Assembly: GCA_002393095.1 (NCBI GenBank)
Contig: DGII01000036.1
Location: 4,808 to 68,807 of the forward strand
DNA from: Lachnospiraceae bacterium UBA3826
Lineage (GTDB): Bacteria; Bacillota; Clostridia; Lachnospirales; Lachnospiraceae
DNA length: 64,000 nt
Direction: 5' to 3'
In this document: piece after piece, positions 20,687-37,544 of the stretch
How the letters are laid out: each line of letters begins with the position of its first letter
Numbering within the stretch: position 1 is the first letter of the stretch
Translations under genes and position numbers: made by a program
The notes under the pieces: model-generated
Seen by the model: only the letters and a program-made list of their open reading frames with translations
Databases searched by the model: none
Told to the model about the DNA's origin: nothing

Positions 20687-22033
20687 CTATATGAATATCT
20701 GTCGTATCAGCTCTATCACGGGTTCCGGATACAAGCCTGTCATAACCGACAGCAGCGTCAGCGTCGCTATGGGCAGCGCCATCAGAAGTCCCGGTCTGTA
20801 CCCCTTGATATCCTCTCCTGCATGGCTAAGCCTGTATTCCTCTCCCGGAAAGAATCCGATGATAGTAAGCTTAAGCAGATAGCCTGCGGTTAGCAGCGCA
20901 CTTATCAGAAGTATCACAGGCCCCAGATACGAGAATACCGGTATATCTGCAGACAGAGCTCCCGTTGCCAGATACCACTTGGATACGAATCCGCCTGTAG
21001 GCGGTATGCCGATAAGACCCAAGGCTACAATGGTATAGCATATCATGACAAAGGGCATCTTAAGCCCGATCCCGCGCATATCCTCAACCTTAACAGCCTT
21101 CGTATGATGTATGATCGCTCCTGCCGTAAGGAAAAGCGCCGCTTTGATAAAGGCGTGGGCCATTACATGCAGTATGGCTCCGGTCAGTGCATCGGATGAA
21201 TAGCTGATGGAGCTTAAAGCGTTGTCACTATCGTATACACCGAAGCTTACTGATAGTCCGAAAAGGATATAAGACATCTGACTTACGGTGGAATATGCCA
21301 GACGCTTCTTAAGTACAGGCTCTCTGTAGGCAAGCACCGAGCCCATCAGTACCGTTACCAGCGAAAGGCTCATGAATGCCGTCTGTACCGGACTGCCCTT
21401 AAGATTGATCGAACCCAGTACATACCACAGACTTCTTATGATTCCTAAGACTCCGGCATTGACCACGCATGCCGAGAGTACTGCGGAAGCCGGTGCCGGT
21501 GCAACGGGATGGGCGGATGTAAGCCACGAATGCATAGGCCACATGCCTGCCTTGACTCCAAAGCCCAGGATAAGCGACATGGCTGTTATCATCAGTATGG
21601 TGCCGTGCTGCTCCCATGTGGCGGCATCCACGCTGCCTCCCATTATGAAATCCAGACTGCCTGCGAATCTGCCTAAGTTATATATGCCAAAAAGAGCAAA
21701 ATAAGCCCCGAAGAGCGAGAAGAACATATACTTAAGGGCGGCCATCTTAGCCTCCTTCGTCCTGTCATGGATGACAAGAGGCATCGATATAAGCGTTAAA
21801 AGCTCATAACACAGATAGAACGTCACAAGGTTCGAGGCTGCGCATAGCAGTATCTCAACAAGCATCGAAGCGGCAAAGAACACACCAAAGCTCTTCCTTC
21901 GCTCCTTACCCTTCATGTAATCGAGCGCAAATATCCCGGCGCATATGAAGATCACAAGGGTAAGTACCGCGAAGACCGCACCTAACGGGTCCATATGAAA
22001 TTGAATAGGTAATCTGTCCATCATATCCGTCAC
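20687..22033 (-). CDS. MrpD/NuoL-family proton-translocating membrane subunit
   Basis: CYELLT, KAGMWPMHSWLTSAHPVAPAP, KRLAYSTVSQ. Confidence 0.85.
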   Translation of the reverse strand: MTDMMDRLPIQFHMDPLGAVFAVLTLVIFICAGIFALDYMKGKERRKSFGVFFAASMLVEILLCAASNLVTFYLCYELLTLISMPLVIHDRTKEAKMAALKYMFFSLFGAYFALFGIYNLGRFAGSLDFIMGGSVDAATWEQHGTILMITAMSLILGFGVKAGMWPMHSWLTSAHPVAPAPASAVLSACVVNAGVLGIIRSLWYVLGSINLKGSPVQTAFMSLSLVTVLMGSVLAYREPVLKKRLAYSTVSQMSYILFGLSVSFGVYDSDNALSSISYSSDALTGAILHVMAHAFIKAALFLTAGAIIHHTKAVKVEDMRGIGLKMPFVMICYTIVALGLIGIPPTGGFVSKWYLATGALSADIPVFSYLGPVILLISALLTAGYLLKLTIIGFFPGEEYRLSHAGEDIKGYRPGLLMALPIATLTLLSVMTGLYPEPVIELIRQIFI

Positions 22034-23544
22034 GCAAACATATCAAGCCCCTGTCTGATAAGCTCCACTATCGGATCAGACATGACTCCGAGAATAACAT
22101 TAAGTATCACGAAAGCACCAAGCACCGCACTGTATAACGGCACACTCCGCATATGCACCTTCTCATAGCCCTCTCTTCTGAAATTCTCATCCTCCTCTAC
22201 CGGCGTATATATCCTTATGACCGTCTTCATAAAGTATATGGCATTAAGGATGGTACTTATTCCAAGGACTATAAGCACCGGAAGCATCCTCACCGTAAGG
22301 TTGACCGCCGCCTCGGCAAAGAGCAGCTTGCTTATGAAGCCTGAGAATAGAGGCACACCCACCATGGACAGTGCCCCGACTGCAAAGGCTATTCCCGCCA
22401 TTCTGTTACGGTAGGCACTTCCTGTAAGCGGACCGAACTTCCTGCTGCCGTCGGATACATCGGTAAGTCCTATGGCAGATATGAAAAGAAGTGATTTGGT
22501 CGCCGCATGGCTTAGCATATGGAATATCGCAGCCACCATACCGAAGGCCGTACCCATTCCTATACCCATGAATATATATCCTATCTGTGCCACCGATGAG
22601 TAGGCGATCATTCGTCTTATATCATTTTCCCTGATGGCGCTTACCGAACCGAATATCATGCCCGAGAGTCCGAATATGAACAACACATCTATGATGCCGC
22701 TGTTTTTGTATATCTCAAAGCCTATTACTCTGTATATTATCTTGATAAGCAGGAATATATAGCCCTTGGACACAAGACTCGAAAGTATGGCGGCGCTTGA
22801 TACGGTAGAGTATCCGTAAGCATCCGGAAGCCATGCATGGAACGGGAAGAGCGCACATTTTATTGCAAGTCCCACGCTCATAAGCGCTATGGTGCACAGC
22901 AAGGGCTCCGGATAGTGTCCGGCACTGACAAGCCCTTCCACGGATTCCTTGATATTGCTCATAAGCAGATGTCCCGTTATGTCATAGAGGATACATATTC
23001 CAAGCAGGATCATTCCCGAACCGATAAGGCTCATGATCATATATCTGACCGCCGCCTCTATGGTACGTCCGTTCTCCCTGATCATTATCAGTCCGCATGC
23101 CGATATGGTATTGATCTCCACGAATACATAAGCCGTGAAAAGGTCGTTGGTATATACCAGAGCAAGCAGTGAGCTTAACATCAGTCCCACAAGCACATAA
23201 TACAGATTATGCTTACCTGTATTCACTTCATCATACAGCTTCTTGATACCGCCAAGCACCGACAGAAGCATCACTATGGAGAAGAAAAGTGCCATCCCCG
23301 CTTCCAGTATTCCCGCCCTTATCTCATTACCCCACGGTGCGGGAAAGTGTCCCATCATGAACACAAAGCTCTCTCTCGTTACGATAAGATTGCCCAGCAG
23401 CACGGCAGAAAGTCCTATGATTACGGTTATCACCACAGCATTAAGTACTCTGGCCGCCTTACCCGGAAGCACCGAGCATACGGGTCCTGAGAACATTGCA
23501 AGCATTATTGAGAAGAAGGGGAAGTTACGCACAAAGCCCATCAT
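22030..23544 (-). CDS. mrpD: Monovalent cation/H+ antiporter subunit D (MrpD/MbhH-like)
   Basis: DLFTAYVFVEI, KCALFPFHAWLPDAY, RRMIAYSSVAQIG; follows mrpC. Confidence 0.85.
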   Translation of the reverse strand: MMGFVRNFPFFSIMLAMFSGPVCSVLPGKAARVLNAVVITVIIGLSAVLLGNLIVTRESFVFMMGHFPAPWGNEIRAGILEAGMALFFSIVMLLSVLGGIKKLYDEVNTGKHNLYYVLVGLMLSSLLALVYTNDLFTAYVFVEINTISACGLIMIRENGRTIEAAVRYMIMSLIGSGMILLGICILYDITGHLLMSNIKESVEGLVSAGHYPEPLLCTIALMSVGLAIKCALFPFHAWLPDAYGYSTVSSAAILSSLVSKGYIFLLIKIIYRVIGFEIYKNSGIIDVLFIFGLSGMIFGSVSAIRENDIRRMIAYSSVAQIGYIFMGIGMGTAFGMVAAIFHMLSHAATKSLLFISAIGLTDVSDGSRKFGPLTGSAYRNRMAGIAFAVGALSMVGVPLFSGFISKLLFAEAAVNLTVRMLPVLIVLGISTILNAIYFMKTVIRIYTPVEEDENFRREGYEKVHMRSVPLYSAVLGAFVILNVILGVMSDPIVELIRQGLDMFA

Positions 23545-23915
23545 AAGCCCTCCTTCTTAAGTCTTGTTGATATCTCGTCCAGATTAAGCGTCCTGTATCT
23601 TCTGTAAAGCCTTATGGTAAGCGAAAGCATAAGGGCGGACACTGACACCGACACCACGATTCCCGTAAGCACAAGTCCTGCGGGGATAGGGTTGATATAT
23701 CTCTCCACCGAAGTCACTCCGTCCACCACTATAGGCACCGTCCTTCCGGTTATATATCCCTTCACCGCAAGGAAGAGGTATATGGATGAGTCCATGATAT
23801 TAAGTCCTATTATCTTCTTGATAAGGTTCTTCTGGAGCAGCAGATTGGCAAAGCCCGTGGCAAAAAGCGCCATGGCGATGACTTCCGCATAATTGGAAAA
23901 GAAATTTGCACCCAT
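23541..23915 (-). CDS. mrpC: Antiporter subunit C (MrpC/MbhG-like)
   Basis: NLIKKIIGL and NPIPAGLVLTGIVV motifs. Confidence 0.88.
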   Translation of the reverse strand: MGANFFSNYAEVIAMALFATGFANLLLQKNLIKKIIGLNIMDSSIYLFLAVKGYITGRTVPIVVDGVTSVERYINPIPAGLVLTGIVVSVSVSALMLSLTIRLYRRYRTLNLDEISTRLKKEGL

Positions 23916-23916
23916 G

Positions 23917-24882
23917 TTAAAAATCTCCCTTCCTGAACATCACATAGAACGTATACATGGTGCATGCCACCACAAGTCCCACGCATATATTAAGTATCAG
24001 TATAAGTCCGCTTGAAAGTATGGCCCCCGCGGTTCCAAGGGGTATATGACTGTCTAAGTGATTGGCACCGCAGTAGAAGGAATATGCCTTACACAGACAG
24101 TATGTAGTCAGGGCAAAAAAGCTTATCCACTTATATGTCTTCTCAGTGAAGAACCTCTCAGTCTTCATAAAGCCAAAGGCATTGAGATAGAGTATCAGTC
24201 CCGCACCTATTATGGCACCTCCTGAGAATCCGCCTCCCGGAGACAGGTGTCCGTTAAGTATCACATATATACCGAATACGATTATGATAGGCACCAGGAA
24301 TTTAGCCACAGTCTGCAATATCACATCATTCTTGGGCTCATATATGCGGTCACTTGATTCTTCCTTGTCCTTCTCATCCTTCTTATTGTGACGAAGAAGT
24401 ATGAGCACCGTTATCGTTGCCACGAAGAGCACGTTGGATTCACCGAAGGTATCGAACGCCCTGTAATCAAGTATCATACCCGTCACGATATTGACAGCGC
24501 CCGTCTCCTCCAAGCCCTTCTCTATATACCTTGCCGGCACCTCATTATTGGTGGGTCTGTCGGCCGCTCCGACCTTAGGTAAGAATGATACGCTGTATAT
24601 TAAGAGTGCGCCCAGTATGATGCAGAAAAGCACCGCAACCACTCTGTAGCAACGGTTAAAAAACCTAAGCAGCTTATTGGAGCTTTCATCATAAGCCTTC
24701 TCCTTGGCCAACTGCTTATCCTTCATTCGCTCTATCAGATCGGATTCATCCTCCATGGGAATGAGTAAAGACATGTCCATCTTAGTCTCATCCGGATAGT
24801 ATTCATCCTCACCCTTAAGCCATTTGAAAAAACGATATGCTTTTGTCTTACTGTATTCTTCGTCGCTTTTACGCCTGCTCAT
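23917..24882 (-). CDS. mrpB: Antiporter subunit B (MrpB; MbhE+MbhF-like fusion)
   Basis: NIVTGMILDYRAFDTFGE and GHLSPGGGFSGG motifs. Confidence 0.88.
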   Translation of the reverse strand: MSRRKSDEEYSKTKAYRFFKWLKGEDEYYPDETKMDMSLLIPMEDESDLIERMKDKQLAKEKAYDESSNKLLRFFNRCYRVVAVLFCIILGALLIYSVSFLPKVGAADRPTNNEVPARYIEKGLEETGAVNIVTGMILDYRAFDTFGESNVLFVATITVLILLRHNKKDEKDKEESSDRIYEPKNDVILQTVAKFLVPIIIVFGIYVILNGHLSPGGGFSGGAIIGAGLILYLNAFGFMKTERFFTEKTYKWISFFALTTYCLCKAYSFYCGANHLDSHIPLGTAGAILSSGLILILNICVGLVVACTMYTFYVMFRKGDF

Positions 24883-25180
24883 CGAGTCCGTCCACCTTTT
24901 CGGTATTGATATCCATATCCGACAATTCCTTTGTTCCCTCTTCTATGTTGATCGCATGTATCTTCTTAAGTGTCACGAAGAAGAGCACACTGGTAACACC
25001 TGCTCCCACGGCCGCTTCCGTGATGGCAAGATCCGGAGATTCCAGCGTTACCCATATGATAGACATGATAAGTGAGAATGACATATATATAAGGATGGCA
25101 TTAAGCAGATCCTTGGTCACGCTCACGCTCACAGCACATACAAGCAGAAAAACAAGCAATATTATCTGTAAAGTATTCAT
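24869..25180 (-). CDS. DUF4040/MbhD-like small antiporter subunit
   Basis: SPDLAITEAAVGAG motif, three TM segments. Confidence 0.85.
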   Translation of the reverse strand: MNTLQIILLVFLLVCAVSVSVTKDLLNAILIYMSFSLIMSIIWVTLESPDLAITEAAVGAGVTSVLFFVTLKKIHAINIEEGTKELSDMDINTEKVDGLDEQA

Positions 25181-25551
25181 AGTTCTTCCTTTTTTTCCGA
25201 TGCTTTATCATACTCAGCCTCAAGTATGCTCACATCCTCATACACCGTAGCTCTCTTATCTATATCCTCATTGGTAGTCACCTCAAGTCTGGCTAACAGA
25301 TGTGAGGCCACCGGAGATGAGAACCACAGGAATACCACTATAAGCACTATCTTAAGTGTAGTCATGTTAAGTCCCGAAAAGATCATAAGGCCCACAAGGG
25401 ACAGGCTTATACCAAGAGTGTCGCCCATGGCTGCCGCCTGCATACGGTTAAGAACGTAATTCATATGGAATACCCCATAGAGCTCCACCGTGAAGATGAT
25501 AAGCCCCGCAAGCAGGAAGGCCGCTCCGATCACAAGTCGTATCCATTCCAT
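25177..25551 (-). CDS. mrpG: Antiporter subunit G (MrpG/MbhC-like)
   Basis: NRMQAAAMGDTLG, SPVASHLLAR; start moved to MEWIRL, which has an upstream GGAGG. Confidence 0.85.
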   Translation of the reverse strand: MEWIRLVIGAAFLLAGLIIFTVELYGVFHMNYVLNRMQAAAMGDTLGISLSLVGLMIFSGLNMTTLKIVLIVVFLWFSSPVASHLLARLEVTTNEDIDKRATVYEDVSILEAEYDKASEKKEEL

Positions 25552-25552
25552 G

Positions 25553-25882
25553 TTAATCCTCCTCCTTCTTTTTCCTTGCCGCTTTTCTCTCTTCATATAT
25601 TCCTATATATACCTTGGTGATGACCACAACGGCTATAAAGCTTATCATGGCATAGATAAGCGATATGTCCACAAGATAATCCTCCTTAAGCAGAAGGGCG
25701 AGGGCTGTCATTATGACCATTACCATGGTTCCCATCATATTAACGGCCACTATCCTGTCCGCTATGCGCGGCCCTCTTATCGCCCTTATCAAGCAGGCAA
25801 AAAGCGCCAAGGCCAAGATCACTATGACGAACATATATATGGCTCTGTATGCTGTATCTATACTCATACTGCTTCCTTTCAC
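25553..25882 (-). CDS. mrpF: Antiporter subunit F (MrpF/MbhB-like)
   Basis: RAIRGPRIADRIVA, DISLIYAMISF. Confidence 0.88.
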   Translation of the reverse strand: MKGSSMSIDTAYRAIYMFVIVILALALFACLIRAIRGPRIADRIVAVNMMGTMVMVIMTALALLLKEDYLVDISLIYAMISFIAVVVITKVYIGIYEERKAARKKKEED

Positions 25883-26407
25883 TCAGTCCTTGTCCGCAGA
25901 CTCATTCTTCTGCGCTATCATATCAAAGCCGCCGAACTGCTTCTCCCACCTGTCCTCGAATTCGTGCAGCATCACACAGAATACCGAATCCTTTATTCCC
26001 AGGGCGAGACTTTTATCAAGGCAGTGCACCTTGAATCTGTTGCCCTCAACGGATACAGTTATCGTACCCGGAGTAAGCGTTATGCTGTTGGCTAACATCA
26101 TCCTGGCCGAATCCGTCTTAAGATCTGTTACAAAGCTTACAACGGCAGGCTCCACATCATATCTTGAGCTCATGATCATCCTTATGACCGAGAAGTTGGC
26201 CTTGACGATCTCCACTATAAGCACGGCGAAGTACTTCACAAAAAGACCCGCATTACGTGCCGCAAAAATGTCTATCCTTGGAGAATAATCAAGAAAATGA
26301 CAGATGAACCAATATACGCATCCGCAGATGACCAGCCCGAAAAGCGCGATCTCTGTCGTGAGCTTTCCGTTAAAGATTACCCATACGAAGAATAAAAATA
26401 AAAACAT
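25883..26407 (-). CDS. mrpE: Antiporter subunit E (MrpE/MbhA-like)
   Basis: EIVKANF, LANSITLTPGT, VHCLD. Confidence 0.9.
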   Translation of the reverse strand: MFLFLFFVWVIFNGKLTTEIALFGLVICGCVYWFICHFLDYSPRIDIFAARNAGLFVKYFAVLIVEIVKANFSVIRMIMSSRYDVEPAVVSFVTDLKTDSARMMLANSITLTPGTITVSVEGNRFKVHCLDKSLALGIKDSVFCVMLHEFEDRWEKQFGGFDMIAQKNESADKD

Positions 26408-26982: not shown

Positions 26983-28497
26983 ATGCATAACAATGTGACA
27001 GATTATCTTAATTCCATAGTGAAGAGCAAGCCTCACAAGGTTGCCTACAGCGACGGTACAGACTCTCTTACCTTCATGGACGTATATAACATAAGCGGTG
27101 CAATAGGCACATATATCGCAGGAAGAGGTATATATAAGAAGCCCGTTGTAGTCTTCATGAGCAAATCCCCCGCAGAGGTGGCCACCTTCTTAGGTGTTGT
27201 ATCGGCAGGCTGCTATTATGTGCCCATAGATGAAGAGATGCCATCCGAGAGGATACGCCTTATCCTTGACAATGTCTCATCTCCTCTTATTATATGCGAC
27301 AGCCTGACAGCAGAGGTCGCAGAAGGCTTTAAGAAGAATGACACCGATGTCATATTATATGACGATATCCGTTCAACTCTCCGTAATGACAGCGTGCTTA
27401 ATGACATTCATGACAGAGCAATTGATACAGACCCCATATATATAGTATTCACCTCAGGCTCGACAGGCGTTCCCAAGGGTGTAGCGGCTTGCCACCGCTC
27501 GGTGATAGACTATATCGAGCAGCTATCGGAGGTGCTGTCCTTTAGCGAGGATACTGTATTCGGCAATCAGTCTCCCCTGTACTTCGATGCCTGTCTTAAG
27601 GAACTGTATCCCACTCTTAAGTTCGGTGCCACGGATTATCTCATACCCAAGCAGCTATTCTCTACTCCCTATAAGCTTGTGGAATTTCTGAATGAGCACA
27701 GGATCAATACCATATGCTGGGTAGTATCCGCACTCACAATGGTGAGCGCATTCGATACCTTCGATGATATCAAGCCTGAGTATCTTCATACTATAGCCTT
27801 CGGAAGCGAGGTCTTCCCTGTCAAGCAGTTCAGGATATGGAGAGATACCCTTCCCAATGCTACCTTCACTAACCTCTACGGTCCCACCGAAGGAACGGGA
27901 ATGTGCTGCTATTACAGGGTGAACAGAGACTTTGAAGAGGGCGATTCCATCCCTATCGGCAGACCCTTTGACAACAGGGAGATACTGCTTATCAAGGATG
28001 ACGATACTCTTGCAGGTGACGGCGAAGAGGGCGAGATCTGCATTAGAGGAACCTCGGTTACTCTCGGATACTATAACGACCCCGAAAGGACAGCCGCAGT
28101 ATTCACTCAGAACCCGCTTAATACCGCCTACCCTGAGATAATATACAGAACCGGAGATATAGGCAGATACAATGAGCTCGGCGAGCTTATATACATATCC
28201 CGTAAGGATTATCAGATCAAGCACATGGGCCACAGGGTGGAGCTTGGCGAGATAGAAGCTGACGTGGATGCACTGGATGTCATAAGGATGGCGGCCTGCA
28301 TATATGACAATGACAAAAAGCTCATTATACTGTATTATATAGGAGATATAGAGGCAGCAGAGCTTAATAAGCTGCTTAAGGACAAACTGCCAAGGTATAT
28401 GCTGCCCGGCAGGACATATAAGCTTGACAGCATGCCCTTTACCGGCAACGGCAAGATAGATCGTGTTACACTTAAGAAGATGTACAAGGAGGCATAA
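26983..28497 (+). CDS. Stand-alone amino acid adenylation enzyme (DltA-like amino acid-carrier protein ligase)
   Basis: A3 YIVFTSGSTGVPKG, A4 FDAC, A5 NLYGPTE, A7 YRTGD, A8 RVELGEIE, A10 NGKIDR. Confidence 0.9.
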   Translation: MHNNVTDYLNSIVKSKPHKVAYSDGTDSLTFMDVYNISGAIGTYIAGRGIYKKPVVVFMSKSPAEVATFLGVVSAGCYYVPIDEEMPSERIRLILDNVSSPLIICDSLTAEVAEGFKKNDTDVILYDDIRSTLRNDSVLNDIHDRAIDTDPIYIVFTSGSTGVPKGVAACHRSVIDYIEQLSEVLSFSEDTVFGNQSPLYFDACLKELYPTLKFGATDYLIPKQLFSTPYKLVEFLNEHRINTICWVVSALTMVSAFDTFDDIKPEYLHTIAFGSEVFPVKQFRIWRDTLPNATFTNLYGPTEGTGMCCYYRVNRDFEEGDSIPIGRPFDNREILLIKDDDTLAGDGEEGEICIRGTSVTLGYYNDPERTAAVFTQNPLNTAYPEIIYRTGDIGRYNELGELIYISRKDYQIKHMGHRVELGEIEADVDALDVIRMAACIYDNDKKLIILYYIGDIEAAELNKLLKDKLPRYMLPGRTYKLDSMPFTGNGKIDRVTLKKMYKEA

Positions 28498-28500
28498 GCA

Positions 28501-28728
28501 ATGGAAGAATTAATGGAGATACTTACATCCCTTCACCCGGATGTTGATTTTGACAAAGAGGAGCATCTGATAGATGACAAGATCCTTGACTCAATGGATA
28601 TAGTAAGGCTTGTGACCGAGCTTACGGACAAGTTCGATATTAAGATCAAGGCCAAGGATATTATCCCTGAGAACTTCAATTCCGCTAAGGCGATCGGTGC
28701 ACTGATAGACAGGATCAATGAAGAATGA
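28501..28728 (+). CDS. Acyl/aminoacyl carrier protein (DltC-like)
   Basis: 75 aa acidic protein with phosphopantetheine site ILDSMDIV and PENFNS. Confidence 0.9.
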   Translation: MEELMEILTSLHPDVDFDKEEHLIDDKILDSMDIVRLVTELTDKFDIKIKAKDIIPENFNSAKAIGALIDRINEE

Positions 28729-28740
28729 TGAGGTGTTAAG

Positions 28741-30336
28741 GTGCTATTCACATCCTACGGCTTCATAGGCTCAGTGCTTATACTTTTTCTGCTCTACTAC
28801 GTTATTCCCAAGAGGTTAAGACCGGCACTTTTGCTAGTCTTCTCTCTTATCATATACGGTATGGCAGACGCCAGATACCTTATATATATAGGTATAACCG
28901 TTGTAACGGTATGGTACGCAGCCCTTATCATAGATAAGAACAACAAAGCCGTCAAAGACTACATCAAAAAGCATAAGGCAGAGATGTCCGCCACGGAGCG
29001 TAAGGCATACAAAAAGCTTAAGGGGAGAAAAAGTCTCCTCTTCTTTTTGGCAGGGCTTGTCTTAAACTTAGGAATACTGGCCGTAGTGAAATACTCCGGC
29101 TTTGTCTTATCCGGTATAGGGCATATGCTCTCTTCCGGTACAGACGGTGTACTGAATATACCCGATATGCTTATCCCCTTGGGCATATCCTTCTATACCT
29201 TCCAGTCCGTTGGATATCTGACTGATGTATACAGAGAGAATATCGATGCAGAGAAGAGTCTGCCAAGATATGCTCTCTTTATCACTTTTTTCCCGCAACT
29301 GGTACAGGGTCCCATAAGCAGATATGAGGATCTTGCTCCCACACTGCTTGCTCCGCACAGTGCCGACTTCAGTGTCATATTCCGTGGACTTCAGCGGATA
29401 CTGTGGGGATATTTTAAGAAGCTTGTCATTGCAGACAGACTTCTTATGGGAGTTACCACGCTTATAGGGGATACCTCCCTCTATCGCGGCGGGTATGTAC
29501 CCGTTATGATGCTTCTGTATACGCTTGAGCTCTATGCGGACTTTACCGGCGGAATTGACATAACCATCGGTATCGCCGAGACCCTTGGCATTAGCATCAA
29601 GGAGAACTTCATACGTCCCTACCTGTCCACATCCCTTGCAGATTACTGGCGCAGGTGGCACATATCCATGTGCAGTTGGTTCCGTGACTATGTCTTCTAT
29701 CCGGTATCCACAAGCAACGCTTCCATACGGCTGTCCAAGTGGGCCAGAAAGCATATAAGCGATAGTGCGGGCGGTAAACTTCCCGTATATCTGTCAAGCT
29801 TCATTGTATGGTTCTGTACCGGCATATGGCATGGGGCAAGTGTCAACTTCATAGTATGGGGACTTCTTAACTTCCTTGTACTTACGATATCTGAAGAGCT
29901 TTCTCCTCTCTATGAGAGATTCCATAAGCGCTTCTCATTCGCCGGCAGCTTCCCTTATCGTGTATTCATGATACTTCGTACCTTCCTTTTGGTATGCGTA
30001 CTGAATCTCTTCGACTGCTTTGCGGATGTCAGAGATACTCTCGGCCTTATAGTATCCGCTTTTAACTTCGGAAGCTACTCATCTATGGAAAAGGGTGCCC
30101 TGCTTAACATCGGCTTAAGCGTAAGTGACTATGTTATCGCTGCCGTTGCGCTTACGGCTGTACTTATCGTAAGCATCATCGAAGAGAGGTATGATACAAG
30201 CATCAGGGATATCATAAGAAAGCGTCCCTATGCGGTGAGGTTCATTCTGTGGACATGCCTGTTCCTTGCAACTCTCATATTCGGAGTATACGGTATAGGC
30301 TATGACTCCTCACAGTTCATATACAACAGGTTCTAA
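28741..30336 (+). CDS. MBOAT acyltransferase (DltB/AlgI-like) with C-terminal FIYNRF motif
   Basis: PLGISFYTFQ, FFPQLVQGPI, WRRWHISM, catalytic GIWHGA; ends FIYNRF. Confidence 0.92.
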   Translation: MLFTSYGFIGSVLILFLLYYVIPKRLRPALLLVFSLIIYGMADARYLIYIGITVVTVWYAALIIDKNNKAVKDYIKKHKAEMSATERKAYKKLKGRKSLLFFLAGLVLNLGILAVVKYSGFVLSGIGHMLSSGTDGVLNIPDMLIPLGISFYTFQSVGYLTDVYRENIDAEKSLPRYALFITFFPQLVQGPISRYEDLAPTLLAPHSADFSVIFRGLQRILWGYFKKLVIADRLLMGVTTLIGDTSLYRGGYVPVMMLLYTLELYADFTGGIDITIGIAETLGISIKENFIRPYLSTSLADYWRRWHISMCSWFRDYVFYPVSTSNASIRLSKWARKHISDSAGGKLPVYLSSFIVWFCTGIWHGASVNFIVWGLLNFLVLTISEELSPLYERFHKRFSFAGSFPYRVFMILRTFLLVCVLNLFDCFADVRDTLGLIVSAFNFGSYSSMEKGALLNIGLSVSDYVIAAVALTAVLIVSIIEERYDTSIRDIIRKRPYAVRFILWTCLFLATLIFGVYGIGYDSSQFIYNRF

Positions 30337-30340
30337 AGCA

Positions 30341-31393
30341 ATGAGAAAAAAGTTAGAGACAAGACAACTTATAACCGCATTACTGTCTGCCGTGGCTGTT
30401 ATCGCGCTGATATACCTTGCGCAGAGACTTCTGATCCCCAAGTATGTGGATGATATCGTGGAAGGCGGAATGGTATCCGAATACTATGATGAGAAGGACA
30501 AGAGCTTCGATGTTATCTTCATAGGCGACTGTGAGGTGTATGAAAACTTCTCTCCCGTCACACTGTGGGAGAACTACGGCATCAACAGTTATATAAGAGG
30601 AAGTGCCGAGCAGTATATCTTCCAGTCATATTATATGCTGGAGGATACCTTAAGATACAGCAGACCGAAGGTTGTGGTATTCAACATACAATCCCTGCAA
30701 TTTGATGAGTCAAGATCGGAAGCATACAACCGCATGACCATAGACGGTATGAAGTGGTCAGGGGCCAAGCTTGGATGTATCAAAGCCTCCATGACAGATG
30801 AAGAACATCTTATTGAATATATATTCCCCATCTTAAGGTTCCATTCAAGATGGAACGAGCTAACGTCTGCGGATGTGGAGTACATGTTCAGACACAAGAA
30901 GGTGACACACAACGGCTATTACATGCGAGTGGATGCTCTTCCCGCAGGGGACATGCCGCCGGTGAAGCCGCTTGGAGACTACAGCTTCGGTGACAGGGCA
31001 TGGGAATATCTTGATAAGATACGCACCTGCTGTGAGGACAATAATATAGAGCTTCTGCTCATCAAGGCGCCCAGTCTTTACCCGTACTGGTATCCGCAGT
31101 GGGATGAACAGGTAAAGGAATATGCCGATATGTACGGCCTTAAATACATTAATTTCCTTGACGAAAAGGATGCAATAGGTATAGATTATAACACAGACAC
31201 ATATGACGGCGGTCTGCATATGAACCTAAGCGGTGCCGTGAAGTGTGCGGATTACATCGGCCCCATACTAAGGAATGAGTATGAAGTGCCCGACAGACGT
31301 GATGATGAGGCTCTTGCTTCCATATGGGCAGACAAGATCAGGGTCTACAACGAAGATATAGATTATCAGAAGGAGCAGTACGGTATAGAATGA
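30341..31393 (+). CDS. Membrane-anchored SGNH-like transferase (DltD/AlgJ-like)
   Basis: N-terminal TM; block I FIGDCE; C-terminal YDGGLHMN; start moved to MRKKLE. Confidence 0.75.
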   Translation: MRKKLETRQLITALLSAVAVIALIYLAQRLLIPKYVDDIVEGGMVSEYYDEKDKSFDVIFIGDCEVYENFSPVTLWENYGINSYIRGSAEQYIFQSYYMLEDTLRYSRPKVVVFNIQSLQFDESRSEAYNRMTIDGMKWSGAKLGCIKASMTDEEHLIEYIFPILRFHSRWNELTSADVEYMFRHKKVTHNGYYMRVDALPAGDMPPVKPLGDYSFGDRAWEYLDKIRTCCEDNNIELLLIKAPSLYPYWYPQWDEQVKEYADMYGLKYINFLDEKDAIGIDYNTDTYDGGLHMNLSGAVKCADYIGPILRNEYEVPDRRDDEALASIWADKIRVYNEDIDYQKEQYGIE

Positions 31394-31406
31394 CCGTTAT
31401 AAGAAT

Positions 31407-33251
31407 ATGTGCGGAATATGCGGAATCTTAGGAAGAGAGAACAGAAGAAGCATCCCTGAGGATGTCCTTAAGGATATGATGAAGGCCATTGCCCACAGAG
31501 GACCGGACGGAAGCGGAAGCTTCATCGACTCTCATGTGGCTCTTGGCTTCAACAGGTTAAGCTTTATTGACCTTGAGGGCGGGATGCAGCCTCTCTATAA
31601 CGGTGATAAGTCCGTGGTTATGGTATGTAACGGAGAGATATTCAACCATAACGAATTAAGGGATGAACTTATGGCTAAAGGCTATGTGTTCAGGACCAGA
31701 ACAGATGTGGAGGTGATACCCCATCTGTATGATGAATACGGACTTGACTTTCCCAAGTATCTGAACGGGCAGTTCGCCATTGCTCTGTATGATATCCGTA
31801 AGGACGAGCTGTACTTAATAAGAGATCAGGTGGGGATATGTCCCCTTTACTATACGATATATGACGGTCGTGTCATATTTGGTTCGGAGATCAAGGCTAT
31901 CCTTGAATATCCCGGCGTTCCGAGAAGGCTCAATATGAAAGCCGTCGATCAGCTTATGAACTTCCCCGGCATCGTCTCTCCCACTACCTTCTTCGATGGT
32001 ATATACGCACTCCGCGCCGGACATATCATAAGGTTTGCGGCAGATCCTGCCATAGAGCCTGAGGATATTGAATTTTGGGATATGATATACACGGAGGATA
32101 TAGAGGATAAGGGCGAGGAATACTATGTTGAGAATGTGAAAAAGCTCTTTAAAGAGGCTGTTGCCAGAAGATTAGAGGCGGATGTGCCCATCGGATTCTA
32201 TATATCCGGAGGTCTTGACAGCTCGCTTGTGGCCTGTTATATAGGCAAATTCCTGCTTAACAGCTACTATTCCTTCTCTGCCGAGATCGGAACAGACGAA
32301 CTGGACGAAAGCCCTTATCAGAAGCTTGTTAAGGACTGTGTTAAGTCTACACATTATTCCGTTCCCGTAACGGATGAGAGTATATATGAGAATCTGCGTA
32401 CCGTGATACATCATACGGAATCCGCAGTCAAGGAAAGCTATGATGTGGCAGCCTTTCTCTTAAGCTCTCTCGTGCAGGGCTCTCCTGCCAAGGCTGTCCT
32501 TACGGGGCAGGGTTCGGACGAATTCTTCTGCGGTTATGTGGGCTATATGCTTGATATGTTCCGCGGTATGCAGCGTGGTTCCATGAGCGAGGATGAACTT
32601 AAATATAATGAACACCTGTGGGGTGACAGATACTTCAGATACGAAAGGATACATCCGGATATTCGCAAGGTGCATAAGCAGGTGTATTCTCCTGAATTCG
32701 CATCACAGTTAGAGAGCTTCTCGGCACTTAAGGAAAGCCCTATAGATACAGCCAAGGTTGCGGGCTTAAGTGATGCCAAGAGACGGTCATATATAGACTA
32801 TAAGCTTCGTCTGTCGGATCACCTTCTGATAGAACACGGTGACCATATGTTCTTCTCTCATTCGGTTGAAGGCAGGCACCCATTCTTAGATGCCAGGCTG
32901 CTTGACTTCGTAAGGCTGATACCCGATGAGTATAAGATCAACGGTACCAATGAGAAGTACATACTTAAGCGTGCCGGAGAAGGCATCGTGCCTGAGAAGA
33001 TCCTTAAGCGCAACAAGTTCCCCTTTCAGGCACAGGGAATGTCGATGCTTATCAAGAATACCCGCATTGAAGAATACATCGACGACACACTTATAAGAAA
33101 ATACGGTATATTCAATACCGATTTCATAAGCAGGATGAGAAAGGACTACAGACAGGAGGATTTCAAGCTCATGGGCGCATATGAGATCGACTATCTCATG
33201 ATAGTCATGACGGTGACCATGCTGTGTGAGGAATTCTCATTAAGCGTATGA
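31407..33251 (+). CDS. Asparagine synthetase B-family glutamine amidotransferase
   Basis: Ntn nucleophile MCGICG, NGEIFN, SGGLDSS ATP loop, LTGQGSDE, RHPFLD. Confidence 0.9.
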   Translation: MCGICGILGRENRRSIPEDVLKDMMKAIAHRGPDGSGSFIDSHVALGFNRLSFIDLEGGMQPLYNGDKSVVMVCNGEIFNHNELRDELMAKGYVFRTRTDVEVIPHLYDEYGLDFPKYLNGQFAIALYDIRKDELYLIRDQVGICPLYYTIYDGRVIFGSEIKAILEYPGVPRRLNMKAVDQLMNFPGIVSPTTFFDGIYALRAGHIIRFAADPAIEPEDIEFWDMIYTEDIEDKGEEYYVENVKKLFKEAVARRLEADVPIGFYISGGLDSSLVACYIGKFLLNSYYSFSAEIGTDELDESPYQKLVKDCVKSTHYSVPVTDESIYENLRTVIHHTESAVKESYDVAAFLLSSLVQGSPAKAVLTGQGSDEFFCGYVGYMLDMFRGMQRGSMSEDELKYNEHLWGDRYFRYERIHPDIRKVHKQVYSPEFASQLESFSALKESPIDTAKVAGLSDAKRRSYIDYKLRLSDHLLIEHGDHMFFSHSVEGRHPFLDARLLDFVRLIPDEYKINGTNEKYILKRAGEGIVPEKILKRNKFPFQAQGMSMLIKNTRIEEYIDDTLIRKYGIFNTDFISRMRKDYRQEDFKLMGAYEIDYLMIVMTVTMLCEEFSLSV

Positions 33252-33296
33252 GCAGGCTTTATCATACATGTATGTTTTTTTTTATGAGGGATTAGT

Positions 33297-35192
33297 GTGA
33301 AAAATATGAGTAATATAGACAAAGAGATGGAGATCATCGATCTTGACAACGAGGACATAACCTCAGAGCCCGATCTGTCCGAAGATGAGATCGTACATGA
33401 GGACGAGACCGTGTCTTATGATGAGAACACATCCGGTGAAGCCGCATCAGATGAGACCGCATCCGGTGAGGCTGCTTTGGATACAGAGCATGGCACGACT
33501 ACACATTCAGAGCGTTCCCATAAGAGACATAAGAAAAATAAGAAGAAGCATAAGAATCGCAAAAAGGGGCATGGCATAGCCGTGGCTCTGATCTTATTTA
33601 CTCTTCTTGCTGCTCTGGGAGTCGGCGGATATTATATCTACAGCGACTATACGGGACGCGTCTATTCAAGGGCTATAATAGAGGCCGGTGACGTTGAGGT
33701 CACCCCCGATGACTTCTCTAAGGACCCTCTTAAGCCAGTATATTTTGCGGACGGCTTCGATATCACGGCTATAGATACCAAGTCTCCCGGTGACTATGAT
33801 ATCTCTCTTACATCCGGCTTCTATAGCTATACATCCATTCTGACCGTAGAGGATACTACCCCTCCCGTAGCAGAGATCGACACTGTAACCCTTGAATTCG
33901 GTAAAGAGGTTACTCCTTCCGATTTCATAATTAGTATTGATGATGTGACTAAGGTGGATGTAGCCTTCGCCACAGCCCCCGATCTAAGCAAGGGCGGTGA
34001 AAGCCCCGTCACCCTTATACTTACCGATACTTCCGGTAATACGGCAACATATGATTCCACACTTACCATAATTCCCATACACAGCAGTGTAGTGATCGAG
34101 GCCGGAGATGATATGCCGTCTGTTGACAGCTTCCTGCTTCCTGAGATGGGTTCGGATAATGATGGCGCAGTTATGTTAACCTCTGCCGGTTCAATAGATA
34201 CTCTTATCCCCGGAGAATACCCTGTTAAGATCAAGCTTTCCTCAGGTACATATGAGTCCAGACTTATCATAGAGGATACCATAGCGCCTGTCATCACCGT
34301 GAAGGACTTCGACGGCTATATAACCTCGGATATCACTCCCGAATCCCTTATAGAGACTGCCGAGGATTCCACAGAGCTTAAGTTCTCCTTCAAGGAAGAA
34401 CCCGAATTCGATTCCGAAGGCACATATGAGGTTACAGTGGTTGCCACGGATATGGGTGGCAACACCGCTGAGGCTGTATCAACCCTTAAGCTTATACCCG
34501 ATACGGAAGCACCGGTCATCACAGGTGCCAAGGATATCACGATCATGCAGAATTATCCCATAAGCTATCGTGACGGTATCACGGTGACGGATAACTGTGA
34601 TGAGAACATAGTACTTAAGATCGAAGCAGACAGTGTCAACCCCAAGGAGCTCGGTACATACCCCATAGTATATTCCGCTACGGACAGAGCCGGCAATACC
34701 ACTGAGGTACCCGTTACCCTTACCATAATCGAAGAGCACTATGATGAAGCCACGGTATATGCCCTTGCCTCACAGACACTTGCACGTATCACCACTCCCG
34801 AAATGAACAATATGGAGAAGATAACGGCCATATACTGGTATGTCAAGAAGAACATGTCCTATACCGAATCCGACAATAAGGATGACTGGCTTAAGGCTGC
34901 TTACTATGGTCTTGCTCTCCATAAGGGCGACTGCTACTCATACTGCTGTGCATGCAAGGCAATGTTCGATGTACTCGGCATCCCCAATATGATCATAGAC
35001 ACCTATCCCTTAAGGATCATACATTTCTGGAATCTGGTCGATCTGGGCGAAGGCTGGAGACACTTTGATACCACCCCAAGAATAGGCGGAGGCGAGTTCC
35101 TGTACATGGATGATGCAACTATCACAGCATACTCTGTAGCACACAATAACTCACATATATACGACAGGAACAGATTTCCGGGCATTCAGTAG
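33297..35192 (+). CDS. Membrane-anchored protein with Ig-like repeats and C-terminal transglutaminase-like domain
   Basis: Acidic N-terminus, His/Lys-rich patch, one TM, repeats ending DTTPP/DTIAP/DTEAP, triad GDCYSY..HFWNLV..HFDTT. Confidence 0.82.
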   Translation: MKNMSNIDKEMEIIDLDNEDITSEPDLSEDEIVHEDETVSYDENTSGEAASDETASGEAALDTEHGTTTHSERSHKRHKKNKKKHKNRKKGHGIAVALILFTLLAALGVGGYYIYSDYTGRVYSRAIIEAGDVEVTPDDFSKDPLKPVYFADGFDITAIDTKSPGDYDISLTSGFYSYTSILTVEDTTPPVAEIDTVTLEFGKEVTPSDFIISIDDVTKVDVAFATAPDLSKGGESPVTLILTDTSGNTATYDSTLTIIPIHSSVVIEAGDDMPSVDSFLLPEMGSDNDGAVMLTSAGSIDTLIPGEYPVKIKLSSGTYESRLIIEDTIAPVITVKDFDGYITSDITPESLIETAEDSTELKFSFKEEPEFDSEGTYEVTVVATDMGGNTAEAVSTLKLIPDTEAPVITGAKDITIMQNYPISYRDGITVTDNCDENIVLKIEADSVNPKELGTYPIVYSATDRAGNTTEVPVTLTIIEEHYDEATVYALASQTLARITTPEMNNMEKITAIYWYVKKNMSYTESDNKDDWLKAAYYGLALHKGDCYSYCCACKAMFDVLGIPNMIIDTYPLRIIHFWNLVDLGEGWRHFDTTPRIGGGEFLYMDDATITAYSVAHNNSHIYDRNRFPGIQ

Positions 35193-35209
35193 CCCGTAGT
35201 CAAAGGATT

Positions 35210-35920
35210 ATGGAAAAACTCGGTATTATAGGCGGTCTGGGCCCCATGGCCACAGTCAGTTTCATGAAAAGAATAATTGACATGACGGATGCTACCTGCG
35301 ATCAGGAGCATATTCATATGGTAGTGGAGCACTGCCCCACTATCCCCGACCGTACAGCTTACATCCTGGATCATAACAAGCCCGATCCTGCCCCCGCCAT
35401 ACTTGAGGCTTGCAGGATTTTGGAGGGTGCAGGTGTGGACGAGATAGCCATCCCCTGTGTAACAGCCCATTTCTTCAGGGATAAGATTGCCAAGATCACA
35501 TCGATACCCGTACTGGACGGTGTAGCGTTGTGTGCGGATTATCTTAAGGAAAAGGGCGTACATAATGTAGGGATAATGGCTACCGACGGAACGATAGCCT
35601 CCGGTATATTCCACAATGTACTGTCCGAACACGGGATCACCTCTGTCACACCTACACCGAAGGCTCAGAGGTATGTAATGGACCTTATATATAATGATGT
35701 CAAGGGCGGCAGACCTATAGAGCAGGATAAGTTTGGTGCCGTGGCCGTTGAACTCAGAGAAAACGGTGCCGAGGTGATAATCCTTGGATGCACCGAATTG
35801 TCCGTTATAGCCGATAAGTGGCTGCCGGATGGCAGGTTTTTGGATGTTTTATCAGTTTTATCCCGTGCATGTGTCATGGATTTCGGCAAATTGAAGGATG
35901 CATATAAGGAATTATTGTGA
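35210..35920 (+). CDS. Aspartate/glutamate-family cofactor-independent racemase (aspartate racemase-like)
   Basis: GIIGGLGPMAT, IPDRT, two catalytic Cys in PCVTAH and GCTEL. Confidence 0.88.
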   Translation: MEKLGIIGGLGPMATVSFMKRIIDMTDATCDQEHIHMVVEHCPTIPDRTAYILDHNKPDPAPAILEACRILEGAGVDEIAIPCVTAHFFRDKIAKITSIPVLDGVALCADYLKEKGVHNVGIMATDGTIASGIFHNVLSEHGITSVTPTPKAQRYVMDLIYNDVKGGRPIEQDKFGAVAVELRENGAEVIILGCTELSVIADKWLPDGRFLDVLSVLSRACVMDFGKLKDAYKELL

Positions 35921-35973
35921 TACAATTAATGTCCATGATAGGAATATATTATTAGATTAAAGAGGATATCATA

Positions 35974-36009
35974 GTGTGAAAAATATGATTGATATCATAT
36001 TTTTCACAC
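35974..36009. repeat. Perfect 16-bp inverted repeat (palindrome family A, copy 1)
   Basis: GTGTGAAAAATATGAT-TGAT-ATCATATTTTTCACAC; related copy at 61063-61096. Confidence 0.85.
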
Positions 36010-36010
36010 A

Positions 36011-36100
36011 GCGATTTGTGCCGAGCCCAAATCGCCTTATCGCATCGGCGAATCTGAAATTCGCCTCGCGAGCCTCGCACAATGTGCTCGGCCCGGAGGA
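36011..36100 (+). repeat. Multi-hairpin intergenic repeat (family B, copy 1)
   Basis: 36042-36082 matches 43125-43165 at 40 of 41 nt; hairpins GCGATTTG/CAAATCGC, GGCGAAT/ATTCGCC, CGAGC/GCTCG; ends at GGAGG. Confidence 0.85.
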
Positions 36101-36105
36101 TTATT

Positions 36106-36732
36106 ATGAAAAAATCAATCAGTGTTATCATAACAGCAGCCGCACTTGCAATGGCACTTACAGCATGCGGCGGGACATCTGAGGATGTTAAAAGGATAGA
36201 GAAGGATTCAACATCCGCTACGGCAACAGAGACTACCGAGGTCAAGGCCGAGGAGCCCGTAACGGAGGGTGCAGAAGTAACGGCTAACGAAGCCTCTTCG
36301 GATGGTGGCTATATATATCACGCCGAGACAGCCTCCGGCTCCATAGATGTATCTGTGGATATGCCGATGGAGACGGTGCTTGCCGCATTAGGCGAGTCTG
36401 ACAGCTACTTTGAAGCCAAGAGCTGTGCTTTTGACGGTCTTGACAAGATGTATACCTACGGACATTTTGAGATAGATACCTATCCCAGTGAATCAGGCGA
36501 CAAGGTATCCGCAATCTACCTTACGGACGACCTGACCGGTACTCCTGAGGGATTATATATAGGTTCTTCCAAGGAGGATATGGAGAAGCTCTACGGAACC
36601 GACTATGAGGTGAACGGAAGTGAATATACATACAAGTCCGGGGATATGAGTCTCAAGATTCAGATATCCAAGGACAAGGTAAGCTATATAACATATGCTT
36701 CCAAGGTACTCGGTACGGTAGCCGGCAACTGA
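36106..36732 (+). CDS. Lipoprotein of unknown function
   Basis: MKK-hydrophobic-LTAC lipobox, Thr/Glu-rich linker; start moved to the ATG after GGAGG. Confidence 0.8.
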   Translation: MKKSISVIITAAALAMALTACGGTSEDVKRIEKDSTSATATETTEVKAEEPVTEGAEVTANEASSDGGYIYHAETASGSIDVSVDMPMETVLAALGESDSYFEAKSCAFDGLDKMYTYGHFEIDTYPSESGDKVSAIYLTDDLTGTPEGLYIGSSKEDMEKLYGTDYEVNGSEYTYKSGDMSLKIQISKDKVSYITYASKVLGTVAGN

Positions 36733-36788: not shown

Positions 36789-37544
36789 ATGACAAAGATA
36801 ACTGTATCAGGAAAAATCAAAGCATTATCAATGGCTGCCATGACTGCTGTTATGGTAGCTTCATCATCCGTGCCCGTATATGCTTCTTCTACAGGTATTC
36901 CCACTGAGGTATTCAGAGCGCAGAAGCTCGCTGATGAGAAGAAGGCAGAAGAACTAAGGATCGCTGCCGCTAAGCAGGCTGCCGCAGAACAGGCTGCATT
37001 CGCAGAAGAACAGATGCAGATACGCGCTGCAATGATAGCCTCCGGAGTGGCTATTCCTCAGGCGATAAAGGGTGCCATTATGCCGGATACCACCGGCTAT
37101 TCACTTATAGCAGTGTATTCCACCAAGTACAACGACAGTCAGGCACGTGCCACTAACATAACTCTTGCCGCCAACAGGATCAACGGATATGTACTGAATC
37201 CCGGAGATGTATTCTCCTTCACTCATACCATTCTTCCCAGAACCGTGGCCAACGGCTATGTGGCAGGTCCTATATTCGTGCAGAAGGAGCATTCCATGGG
37301 CATAGGCGGAGGCATCTGTCAGGTATCCTCCACTCTATACGCGGCTACTATTACGGCAGGTATACCTGCTTTAGAGCGTCATGAGCACGGACTGCCGGTT
37401 ACATATATTCCTCAGGGAATGGATGCCACGATCGATGGCACGAGACTTGACTTTAAATTCGCCAATCCCTACGATAAGCCGCTTATGATATCGGCCACGC
37501 CCGATTACGGTACTCTTACCGTAGGCTTATGGCTTATGAACTGA
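36789..37544 (+). CDS. Secreted VanW-family protein
   Basis: Signal peptide; RATNITLAA, PGDVFSF, GGGICQVSSTLY, GMDATI, DFKFAN. Confidence 0.85.
   Translation: MTKITVSGKIKALSMAAMTAVMVASSSVPVYASSTGIPTEVFRAQKLADEKKAEELRIAAAKQAAAEQAAFAEEQMQIRAAMIASGVAIPQAIKGAIMPDTTGYSLIAVYSTKYNDSQARATNITLAANRINGYVLNPGDVFSFTHTILPRTVANGYVAGPIFVQKEHSMGIGGGICQVSSTLYAATITAGIPALERHEHGLPVTYIPQGMDATIDGTRLDFKFANPYDKPLMISATPDYGTLTVGLWLMN

Follow-up and report, generated by a model that had tools for sequence, protein, structure and literature searches.

The rumen bacterium Lachnospiraceae bacterium UBA3826 carries a cassette of eight genes, a set that is common in gut Clostridia. It lies in a 64,000-nucleotide stretch of contig DGII01000036.1 (the window), and the module that it encodes is best read as a modular, extracellular thioester relay that would N-acylate a surface amine. 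In full, D-aspartate would be made, loaded on a carrier protein, exported by an MBOAT shuttle and passed as a thioester from one to the next of three extracellular cysteines, the last step giving an amide with an envelope amine, a reading with a slightly better than even chance of being right. A literature search, in which most matches were judged from titles or abstract openings, returned no description of the gene set.

Seven of the genes had been picked out in a first-pass annotation as a co-directional unit, and all seven ORFs are intact, on the plus strand and where that annotation had placed them, with gaps of 3, 12, 4, 13, 45 and 17 bp. The unit was incomplete, as a lipoprotein gene at 36,106–36,732 (plus strand) that belongs to it had been overlooked. 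Upstream, dut ends 9 bp before the start of the adenylation gene and is a local neighbour only: both dut and a VanW-domain gene were rejected as cassette members (2/80 loci, the best 80 of 574). The single sigmaA promoter proposed earlier survives as a candidate upstream of dut (TTGACA-17-TAAAAT, 26,457–26,485, plus strand, an 11/12 consensus match alone). A second 11/12 consensus match lies inside dut (26,858–26,885), and sigmaA-type matches number 37, against 22.0 ± 4.5 in shuffled sequence. Contigs from RNA libraries of four studies overlap pieces of the cassette (bin depths 27, 24, 14 and 14 of 30), which may reflect transcription.

Co-occurrence was counted in the full-flank loci among the best 80 of 574, with 36 short-flank loci left out. 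In these 44 loci, the MBOAT and the SGNH-fold protein are always present (44/44 each), followed by the carrier, the transglutaminase-like protein and the lipoprotein (43/44 each), the racemase (40/44) and the AsnB-type amidotransferase (13/44). Since the same set is kept in at least a dozen gene orders among the best 80 of 574 loci, the clustering is not due to chance. The expected association of the racemase with the cassette was thus supported at this level, and the transglutaminase is not the bystander that it had been taken for. The claim that racemase and AsnB both belong to the cassette held only in part: at class level, the racemase is found in 11/29 and is not universal, and AsnB, previously counted as core, is found in 1/29 and, because it is present in only 13 of the 44 full-flank loci, is an optional add-on. 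The cassette was detected in 29 of 300 sampled Clostridia and DltA-like genes in 10 of 300, none of them among the 29. Cultured carriers include Agathobacter ruminis JK623, which has AsnB, and Acetatifactor aquisgranensis DSM 110981, which lacks it.

The stand-alone amino acid adenylation enzyme (26,983–28,497, plus strand; AMP-binding and TIGR01733 matches at cut-off) is, judged by its sequence, not DltA. It scores 286 bits against the DltA model, for which the cut-off is 559.85, and forms its own clade apart from DltA with a support of 0.98. The pocket code, DAKCAGLGMK, whose residues include Asp202, Lys206, Gly274 and Ser275, has a lysine at the bottom of the pocket and a serine at PheA position 302, and it recurs in 81/86 close homologues; the same mapping recovers DLMVLCTVAK for DltA as a control. 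A D-A-K...G pattern is common to this code and the surfactin Glu/Asp code, DAKDLGVV (PMC10548584). The pocket and the separate clade bear out the earlier suggestion of an acidic substrate rather than alanine. The DltC-like carrier (28,501–28,728, plus strand; PP-binding match at cut-off) scores below the DltC cut-off, and its Ppant serine (Ser31, in an LDS motif) is conserved among homologues. One PPTase is found in the genome.

DltA selects the D-isomer via a cysteine at the pocket site that matches the 301–302 region (PMC9338922). In genus g82 (61 genomes), the operon racemase is present in 16 of the 24 A-cassette genomes and in none of the 37 others. The eight A-cassette genomes without it all have Gly-Gly at 301–302, and the 15 with it whose pocket was read have Gly-Ser (13) or Val-Gly (two). 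From this pairing, Gly274–Ser275 likely sets the D-selectivity of the enzyme. However, three genomes of genus g41 have the Ser302 code with no aspartate racemase found, and six A-anchored loci with no racemase in view also keep it. Related genomes are not independent, and the Gly-Gly pocket may represent one event. An influence of AsnB on the pocket was considered and rejected, as 16/20 AsnB loci have the same code.

The racemase (35,210–35,920, plus strand; Asp_Glu_race) is a two-cysteine, aspartate-type enzyme, whose closest solved relative is the archaeal aspartate racemase 1JFL (E 3e-44). Its Cys83, Cys194, Arg48 and Lys165 are conserved in 70–71 of 71 sequences; Arg48 and Lys165 are presumably the basic catalytic residues, as in 1JFL. 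The same relay might carry a different cargo, D-Glu or D-Gln (or cysteate), which seems rather improbable. The D-A-K pocket does resemble the surfactin module-1 code, two of the three g41 genomes with this code and no aspartate racemase have MurI, and the racemase passes the CuyB cysteate-racemase model (208.7 against a cut-off of 190). However, CuyB is found in the context of a neighboring CuyA lyase and transporter (PMC11193023), which are absent from the conserved gene set of the cassette loci, and the racemase is closest to an aspartate enzyme. MurI is also present in 11/11 class-level genomes that carry the operon racemase, which would make a second Glu racemase redundant. In the genus of UBA3826 itself, MurI is found in 0/11 genomes; a housekeeping role for the operon racemase as a Glu racemase was rejected because MurI and this racemase are both missing from most of these genomes. 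The cargo loaded on the carrier is likely D-aspartate, here probably amidated to D-asparagine.

The AsnB-family glutamine amidotransferase (31,407–33,251, plus strand; Asn_synthase and GATase matches) has Cys2 and an SGGLDSS motif. In 29/33 close loci its clade lies beside the core genes, the other four being cut by contig ends, and by this distribution it is an accessory gene dedicated to the cassette. MurE has a DNPR motif, which we take to be of mDAP type, in 5/5 cassette genomes (that of UBA3826 is cut by a contig end). Both observations argue against a highly improbable alternative, that the racemase and AsnB build Lactococcus-type D-Asp/D-Asn bridges, or that AsnB amidates mDAP, apart from the MBOAT genes. 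RacD and AsnH do play the bridge role in L. lactis and AsnB1 amidates mDAP in L. plantarum, but the L. lactis route requires AslA and Lys-type stems (PMC4155827). RacD–AslA–AsnH shares an aspartate racemase and an AsnB-type amidase of D-Asp with the cassette, but uses an ATP-grasp ligase in the cytoplasm and a Lys-type peptidoglycan, none of which is seen for the cassette. An ATP-grasp D-Asp ligase, previously noted as absent from the window, is not evident in the 84%-complete genome either, judged by its PF13535 matches (a protein of a sugar locus, Ddl and one of CarB size). A precedent for the amidation may be GbnC/MgsD, for which the accessible part of 10.64898/2026.04.24.720606 proposes glutamine-dependent amidation of a carrier-bound dicarboxylate, although on polyketide starters (succinyl, malonyl) rather than an exported amino acid.

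The MBOAT (28,741–30,336, plus strand; MBOAT family match) scores below the DltB cut-off and has His364 and a FIYNRF motif (Tyr528) at its C-terminus, which matches DltX weakly; the shuttle is thus fused and not a separate DltX. According to the accessible part of PMC12148441, which defines the FXYXXF acyl-shuttle motif, all characterized MBOAT–SGNH pairs yield O-esters, and the O-acetyltransferases of the PatA/PatB and AlgI/AlgJ type use acyl-CoA and no carrier. These systems also have the motif fused to the MBOAT C-terminus, but in the cassette the carrier is core and the SGNH protein has a cysteine.

That protein (30,341–31,393, plus strand) is membrane-anchored and has no match in Pfam or NCBIfam; its longest ORF starts at 30,302, but homologues of 347–350 residues favor 30,341. 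The model (pLDDT 96.7) and alignment identify an SGNH fold (best match Z 13.5, rmsd 2.8, 162 aligned; DltD 7DXM, Z 11.2, rmsd 5.3, 247 aligned) in which Cys64, in a GDCE motif, replaces the catalytic serine, with Asp289 and His293. The first-pass annotation had missed this change. Cys64 is found in all close homologues, and serine in 92/138 aligned representatives, mostly distant ones. In an SGNH-anchored search across Clostridia, 29/29 close loci have the cysteine, with the lipoprotein in 28 (three as fusions) and the transglutaminase in 27, all misses being at contig ends. Eleven of 18 distant matches were examined; these Ser-SGNH loci have neither partner, and 4 of the 11 have their own adenylation enzyme and carrier. 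The Cys-SGNH clade is one split with a support of only 0.16, and the Ser/Cys contrast may reflect a single event among kin that are not independent.

The DltA–DltC–DltB–DltD architecture assigned to the first four genes therefore holds for a Dlt-like donor half. Both systems have an adenylation enzyme, a carrier with Ppant, an MBOAT whose histidine is catalytic, an FXYXXF tyrosine shuttle and a membrane-anchored partner of SGNH fold. The cassette differs in that its adenylation enzyme falls outside the DltA clade and has a pocket for an acidic substrate, in the fused shuttle and cysteine nucleophile, and in bringing along a racemase, a lipoprotein, a transglutaminase-like enzyme and, in some loci, an amidotransferase.

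The lipoprotein has a lipobox (Cys21), a disordered linker of about 45 residues (17–71, median 36, in 91/94 homologues) and a tandem BLIP/DUF4309-like domain with an invariant Cys107 (SCAF), which the model places at the tip of a β-hairpin. Its fold resembles 4IFA (Z 11.7, rmsd 2.8, 121 aligned) and YjgB 4YGT (Z 10.1, rmsd 2.8, 115 aligned), and an Atlas search matched the homologue P0136 to a BLIP-like fold. The Cys107 loop is predicted to dock into the SGNH active site: the complex model scores 0.62, compared to 0.02 for the best of three controls, on a scale whose mark was reached by 116/157 solved complexes and 2/215 mismatches. SGNH residues 63–64, 289 and 292–293 contact residues 104–109 of the lipoprotein, and at least 71% of contacts are shared between runs, which used own alignments, with partner pLDDT of at least 87. 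The two proteins are fused in five representatives and three loci. SGNH–transglutaminase fusions also exist (P0177 and P0212); since P0212 joins a Ser-SGNH to an intact transglutaminase, the cysteine and the transglutaminase are not strictly coupled.

The transglutaminase-like protein (33,297–35,192, plus strand; Transglut_core and Ig-like matches) is a type II membrane protein with a TM helix (93–111), an Ig-like stalk and a Cys546-His576-Asp591 triad. The triad pattern recurs in 120/129 homologues, in which the cysteine lies 121–573 residues from the TM; no solved relative of the domain was found by sequence. The domain resembles AdmF (andrimid) and arylamine NAT-type enzymes, in which, per the accessible part of 10.64898/2026.04.15.718676, a Cys-His-Asp triad makes an amide from a thioester. 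Those are cytoplasmic natural-product enzymes fed by Ppant carriers, whereas the cassette enzyme stands on a stalk outside the cell and is predicted to receive its acyl group from a Cys carrier.

Loops of BLIP-fold proteins that insert into an active site can be inhibitory. The loop that occupies the SGNH site in the model could thus belong to an activator or inhibitor gating it, with the Cys-SGNH passing D-Asx straight to a hydroxyl group on teichoic acid or on a polysaccharide of the wall, as in Dlt-like O-esterification, and the transglutaminase acting as an editing hydrolase. This is unlikely, although O-esters are the products of the characterized pairs, the Dlt operon encodes a remover of its modification, DltE (PMC13653941), and GT2/GT87 genes are present in some g82 loci. 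It leaves unexplained the three invariant extracellular cysteines and the absence of lipoprotein and transglutaminase from the Ser-SGNH relatives. PF00884 (LtaS/sulfatase) has no match in the complete genome G278, which has the cassette, and only a fragment in G000, which makes teichoic acid doubtful as the acceptor. No conserved acceptor gene was found travelling with the cassette in a scan of 40 neighbors hand-picked from 146.

Genus g82 appears to swap donors. The outer module is accompanied by the amino acid donor in 24/61 genomes and by an FkbH-ACP-MBOAT donor, predicted to supply glyceryl, in 36/61. One donor and one SGNH are found in 54 genomes; three have both donors and extra SGNH copies (2–3), three have neither donor nor SGNH, and one has an SGNH only. 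From this distribution, the outer module appears to be donor-agnostic and fed by the glyceryl donor as well, which has no amine. This counts against a very unlikely scheme in which D-Asx is a linker: once it has been joined to a polymer or lipid, its free α-amine would attack as the nucleophile in a sortase-like transamidation, by which the transglutaminase cross-links to it a peptide of the peptidoglycan or a protein of the surface. In favor of this scheme, transamidation is the namesake reaction of the family, up to six transglutaminase paralogues with different ectodomains occur in g82 loci, and a YkuD/S11 protein follows the cassette in 3/3 g41 loci.

The Cys-SGNH, the lipoprotein with its invariant cysteine and the transglutaminase point to the relay-to-amide reading. 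By its family and residues, the racemase would convert L-Asp to D-Asp; the adenylation enzyme would activate the α-carboxyl, with Lys206 holding the side-chain carboxylate, and load Ser31-Ppant of the carrier. AsnB, where present, could then amidate the side-chain carboxyl, still free in the carrier-bound residue, by analogy to GbnC/MgsD. As in Dlt and PatA, His364 of the MBOAT would direct the acyl group to Tyr528, from which Cys64 of the SGNH protein would take it as a thioester. Outside the cell, Cys107 of the long, flexibly tethered lipoprotein would accept it, and Cys546 of the transglutaminase would take it and make an amide with a wall amine, the candidates including the free amine of mDAP, that of an amino sugar freed of its acetyl group and a lysine side chain of a protein. 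A relay ending in an amide rather than a DltD-type O-ester means that the mild-base release proposed in the first-pass annotation could give a false negative.

In the MBOAT–SGNH pathways known so far, a serine enzyme makes the final O-ester, and the cassette appears to have been rebuilt for a thioester hand-off and an amide outside the cell. The broader picture, to which somewhat less than an even chance is given, is of a thiotemplated assembly line that works outside the cell and occurs in roughly one in ten Clostridia. In it, the tethered lipoprotein would be a Cys-armed acyl carrier, needing no cofactor, between a Cys-SGNH and stalked transglutaminases, and amide-linked envelope modifications would result; donors of the carrier–MBOAT kind (D-Asp, D-Asn, L-Asp, glyceryl) could be exchanged for one another on this plug-in module. 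With the cassette about three times as frequent as DltA-like genes in the 300 sampled Clostridia, many commensals of the gut and rumen may have an envelope modification, acidic or neutral, that has not been described and that a single gene (AsnB) could tune, with a possible stereo-switch in the adenylation pocket. The recognition of these bacteria by lysozyme, peptides, phages and the immune system would then be affected.

The seven open reading frames at 26983..35920 (+ strand) encode an adenylation (A) enzyme, a carrier protein, an MBOAT, an SGNH-like protein, an AsnB-like amidotransferase, a transglutaminase-like protein (TG) and a racemase. Their order and gaps of 3–45 bp agree with the first-pass annotation, and the families it named are borne out by Pfam and NCBIfam, except that the SGNH-like protein matches no family in either. 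GC content of the region is that of the window, which is contig C133 of a genome (G000) that is 84% complete; among the matches listed, the nearest named records are rumen Lachnospiraceae MAGs.

Co-occurrence was counted on 44 loci with at least 6 kb on either side, taken from the best 80 of 574 genome loci anchored on the A enzyme. All 44 include an MBOAT and an SGNH protein, 43 each a carrier, a TG and a lipoprotein, 40 a racemase and 13 an AsnB; the complete set of seven core genes is found in 38. The lipoprotein gene (36106..36732; 43/44) is therefore core and AsnB (13/44) accessory. The seven-gene unit first proposed was right in its genes and incomplete as a set; of the two genes thought to travel with the first four, the racemase mostly does and AsnB does in a minority of loci. 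When AsnB is the anchor, 29 of 33 close metagenome loci, several of them near-identical, adjoin core genes and the remaining four end at contig edges. With SGNH as the anchor, 29 of 300 sampled Clostridia, from at least nine families, have a close homologue, accompanied by the lipoprotein in 28, TG in 27, MBOAT in 24, A enzyme and carrier in 22 each, racemase in 11 and AsnB in one. Of six racemase-less genomes in two families, five encode an intact racemase of the aspartate type at another site; no such gene was found in three genomes of genus g41 or in genome G211.

A palindromic element of ~130 bp (35971..36104), REP- or MITE-like, sits between the racemase and lipoprotein genes and has near-full copies at about a dozen genome sites (78–98% identity). 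A VanW-domain protein (36789..37544), of a family that we take to be L,D-transpeptidases, is a neighbour of the cassette in no relatives but the two closest. The run of membrane proteins at 20687..26407 (− strand) presumably resembles an Mrp/Mnh cation-proton antiporter operon.

The first four genes had been matched to the Dlt architecture. The likeness holds for the donor half (A enzyme, carrier and MBOAT), but fails on the DltA pocket and on the Ser nucleophile of the SGNH protein. DltA-like genes occur in 10 of the 300 Clostridia and in none of the 29 cassette genomes among them. Alignment to DltA structures gives the A-enzyme pocket code DAKCAGLGMK, with Ser at position 302, and 81 of 86 close homologues share it; DltA-like proteins, as a mapping control, yield DLMVLCTVAK by the identical procedure, and the cassette enzymes form their own clade (support 0.98), separate from them. 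DltA is described as selecting D-Ala by a Cys at the 301–302 site (PMC9338922). At the bottom of the pocket, a Lys is suited to an acidic side chain, with the surfactin code DAKDLGVV as a comparison for Lys in an acidic-substrate pocket (PMC10548584). Glu and cysteate (the latter from PMC11193023) are the rival cargoes to Asp. The racemase is nearest to aspartate racemase 1JFL, and MurI is found alongside it in all 11 class-level genomes with the operon racemase, which argues for Asp over Glu as its substrate. MurI matches number 0/11 in genus g1 (G000 and ten relatives) and 0/4 in genus g98.

In genus g82, the racemase is present in 16 of 24 cassette genomes versus none of 37 others. Positions 301–302 are Gly-Gly in all eight cassette genomes that lack it; where it is present, they are Gly-Ser in 13 of the 15 read and Val-Gly in two. 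This link is probably a single evolutionary event, with counter-examples that include g41. Amidation of dicarboxylates held on a carrier has been proposed for AsnB homologues (bioRxiv 2026.04.24.720606), a fitting analogy for a D-Asp-to-D-Asn conversion.

His364 is conserved in the MBOAT, whose C-terminus is FIYNRF, the type of tyrosine shuttle found in PatA and DltX (PMC12148441). Since that source states that MBOATs with a fused shuttle lack a carrier, the cassette MBOAT, which has both, is a hybrid. Seven more MBOAT genes lie in G000 (contigs C2, C42, C79, C86, C147, C150 and C156), most of them adjoining a single-TM partner. A second A enzyme of G000 (contig C161, 8847..11915; 41% identical, code DVKIMSLCNK) shares a sugar-nucleotide locus with a carrier and a TIGR03099-like PLP decarboxylase, and these genes may supply a glycan with a decarboxylated aminoacyl group (beta-Ala or GABA).

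The outer half consists of the SGNH protein, the lipoprotein and TG. The SGNH-like protein is predicted to fold as an SGNH enzyme, and its block I is GDCE in all close homologues (GDCD in five loci); distant relatives have Ser at the nucleophile position. Neither TG nor the lipoprotein was found in 11 distant Ser-SGNH loci, even those with A enzyme and carrier. GSCN in three SGNH proteins (P0220, P0225 and P0303) is apparently an independent Ser-to-Cys change. The lipoprotein joins a disordered tether to a tandem BLIP/DUF4309 fold, and among 109 aligned sequences it has five invariant columns, of which Cys107 is one. TG keeps Cys-His-Asp, with an Ig stalk of varying length. Domain fusions join SGNH to the lipoprotein in eight sequences, linker retained, and to TG in two, one of which, with Ser, is an exception.

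A model of the SGNH–lipoprotein complex, built on the analysis's own alignments, scored 0.62 against 0.02 for the best control, passing a mark attained by 116 of 157 solved pairs and 2 of 215 mismatched pairs; contact agreement was at least 71% and partner pLDDT at least 87. The modelled interface includes SGNH Cys64, Asp289 and His293 and lipoprotein residues 104–109, and supports binding of the lipoprotein at the SGNH active site, acyl transfer being a separate matter.

The preferred reading, to which we give slightly better than even confidence, is an extracellular Cys thioester relay. D-Asp (or D-Asn) would pass from its carrier thioester to an ester on the MBOAT Tyr, then as a thioester to the Cys of SGNH, of the lipoprotein and of TG in turn, and would end up amide-linked to an amine of the wall. 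AdmF-like Cys-His-Asp enzymes are described as converting thioesters to amides (bioRxiv 2026.04.15.718676). One rival is direct O-ester formation, with a regulatory lipoprotein and with TG as an editor resembling DltE (PMC13653941). For the relay, there are weak hints of peptidoglycan as the acceptor: MurE is of the DNPR type in five of five cassette-carrying genomes, no match to the LtaS family was found in the complete genome G278, and in three g41 loci a YkuD/S11 protein comes after the cassette. Further rivals are that D-Asx serves as a cross-link linker, or that an independent bridge of the Lactococcus type (PMC4155827) is made.

The donor appears to be exchangeable. Five g82 genomes keep SGNH, the lipoprotein and several TGs in a locus without A enzyme, carrier or MBOAT, and carry FkbH-ACP-MBOAT-ThrH at another site, a context seen in 10 of 36 FkbH-type MBOAT loci; no SGNH was found within about 8 kb of it. 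FkbH is presumably a glyceryl loader here. Among 61 g82 genomes, which as relatives are not independent, 24 have the cassette A enzyme and 36 the FkbH-type MBOAT, with both in three and neither in four. Cys-SGNH is present in 2–3 copies in the three with both donors and absent from three of the four with neither; by these counts, therefore, the outer module stands in a one-to-one relation to carrier-MBOAT donors, irrespective of cargo.

Other arrangements are also seen. In five loci (L150, L152–L155), a GT2 glycosyltransferase occupies the A-carrier-MBOAT position of sister genomes, joined by a GT87 in L150, with up to six TG paralogues per locus and a second lipoprotein. Loci L151 (genome G303) and L250 read TG-MBOAT-Cys-SGNH-lipoprotein without A enzyme or carrier, possibly a third donor type; the only related A enzyme of that genome is followed by a decarboxylase. 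Four A-carrier-MBOAT-Ser-SGNH cassettes (L156, L157, L159 and L158), in which the pocket lacks Asp235 (SMTYLALDIK) or a GNAT gene is inserted, would be further uncharacterised carrier-fed acylation systems.

Literature searches found no published description of this gene set, as the first-pass annotation had maintained. The cassette is real, widespread and uncharacterised, and there is a credible case that it represents a new extracellular thiotemplate mechanism.
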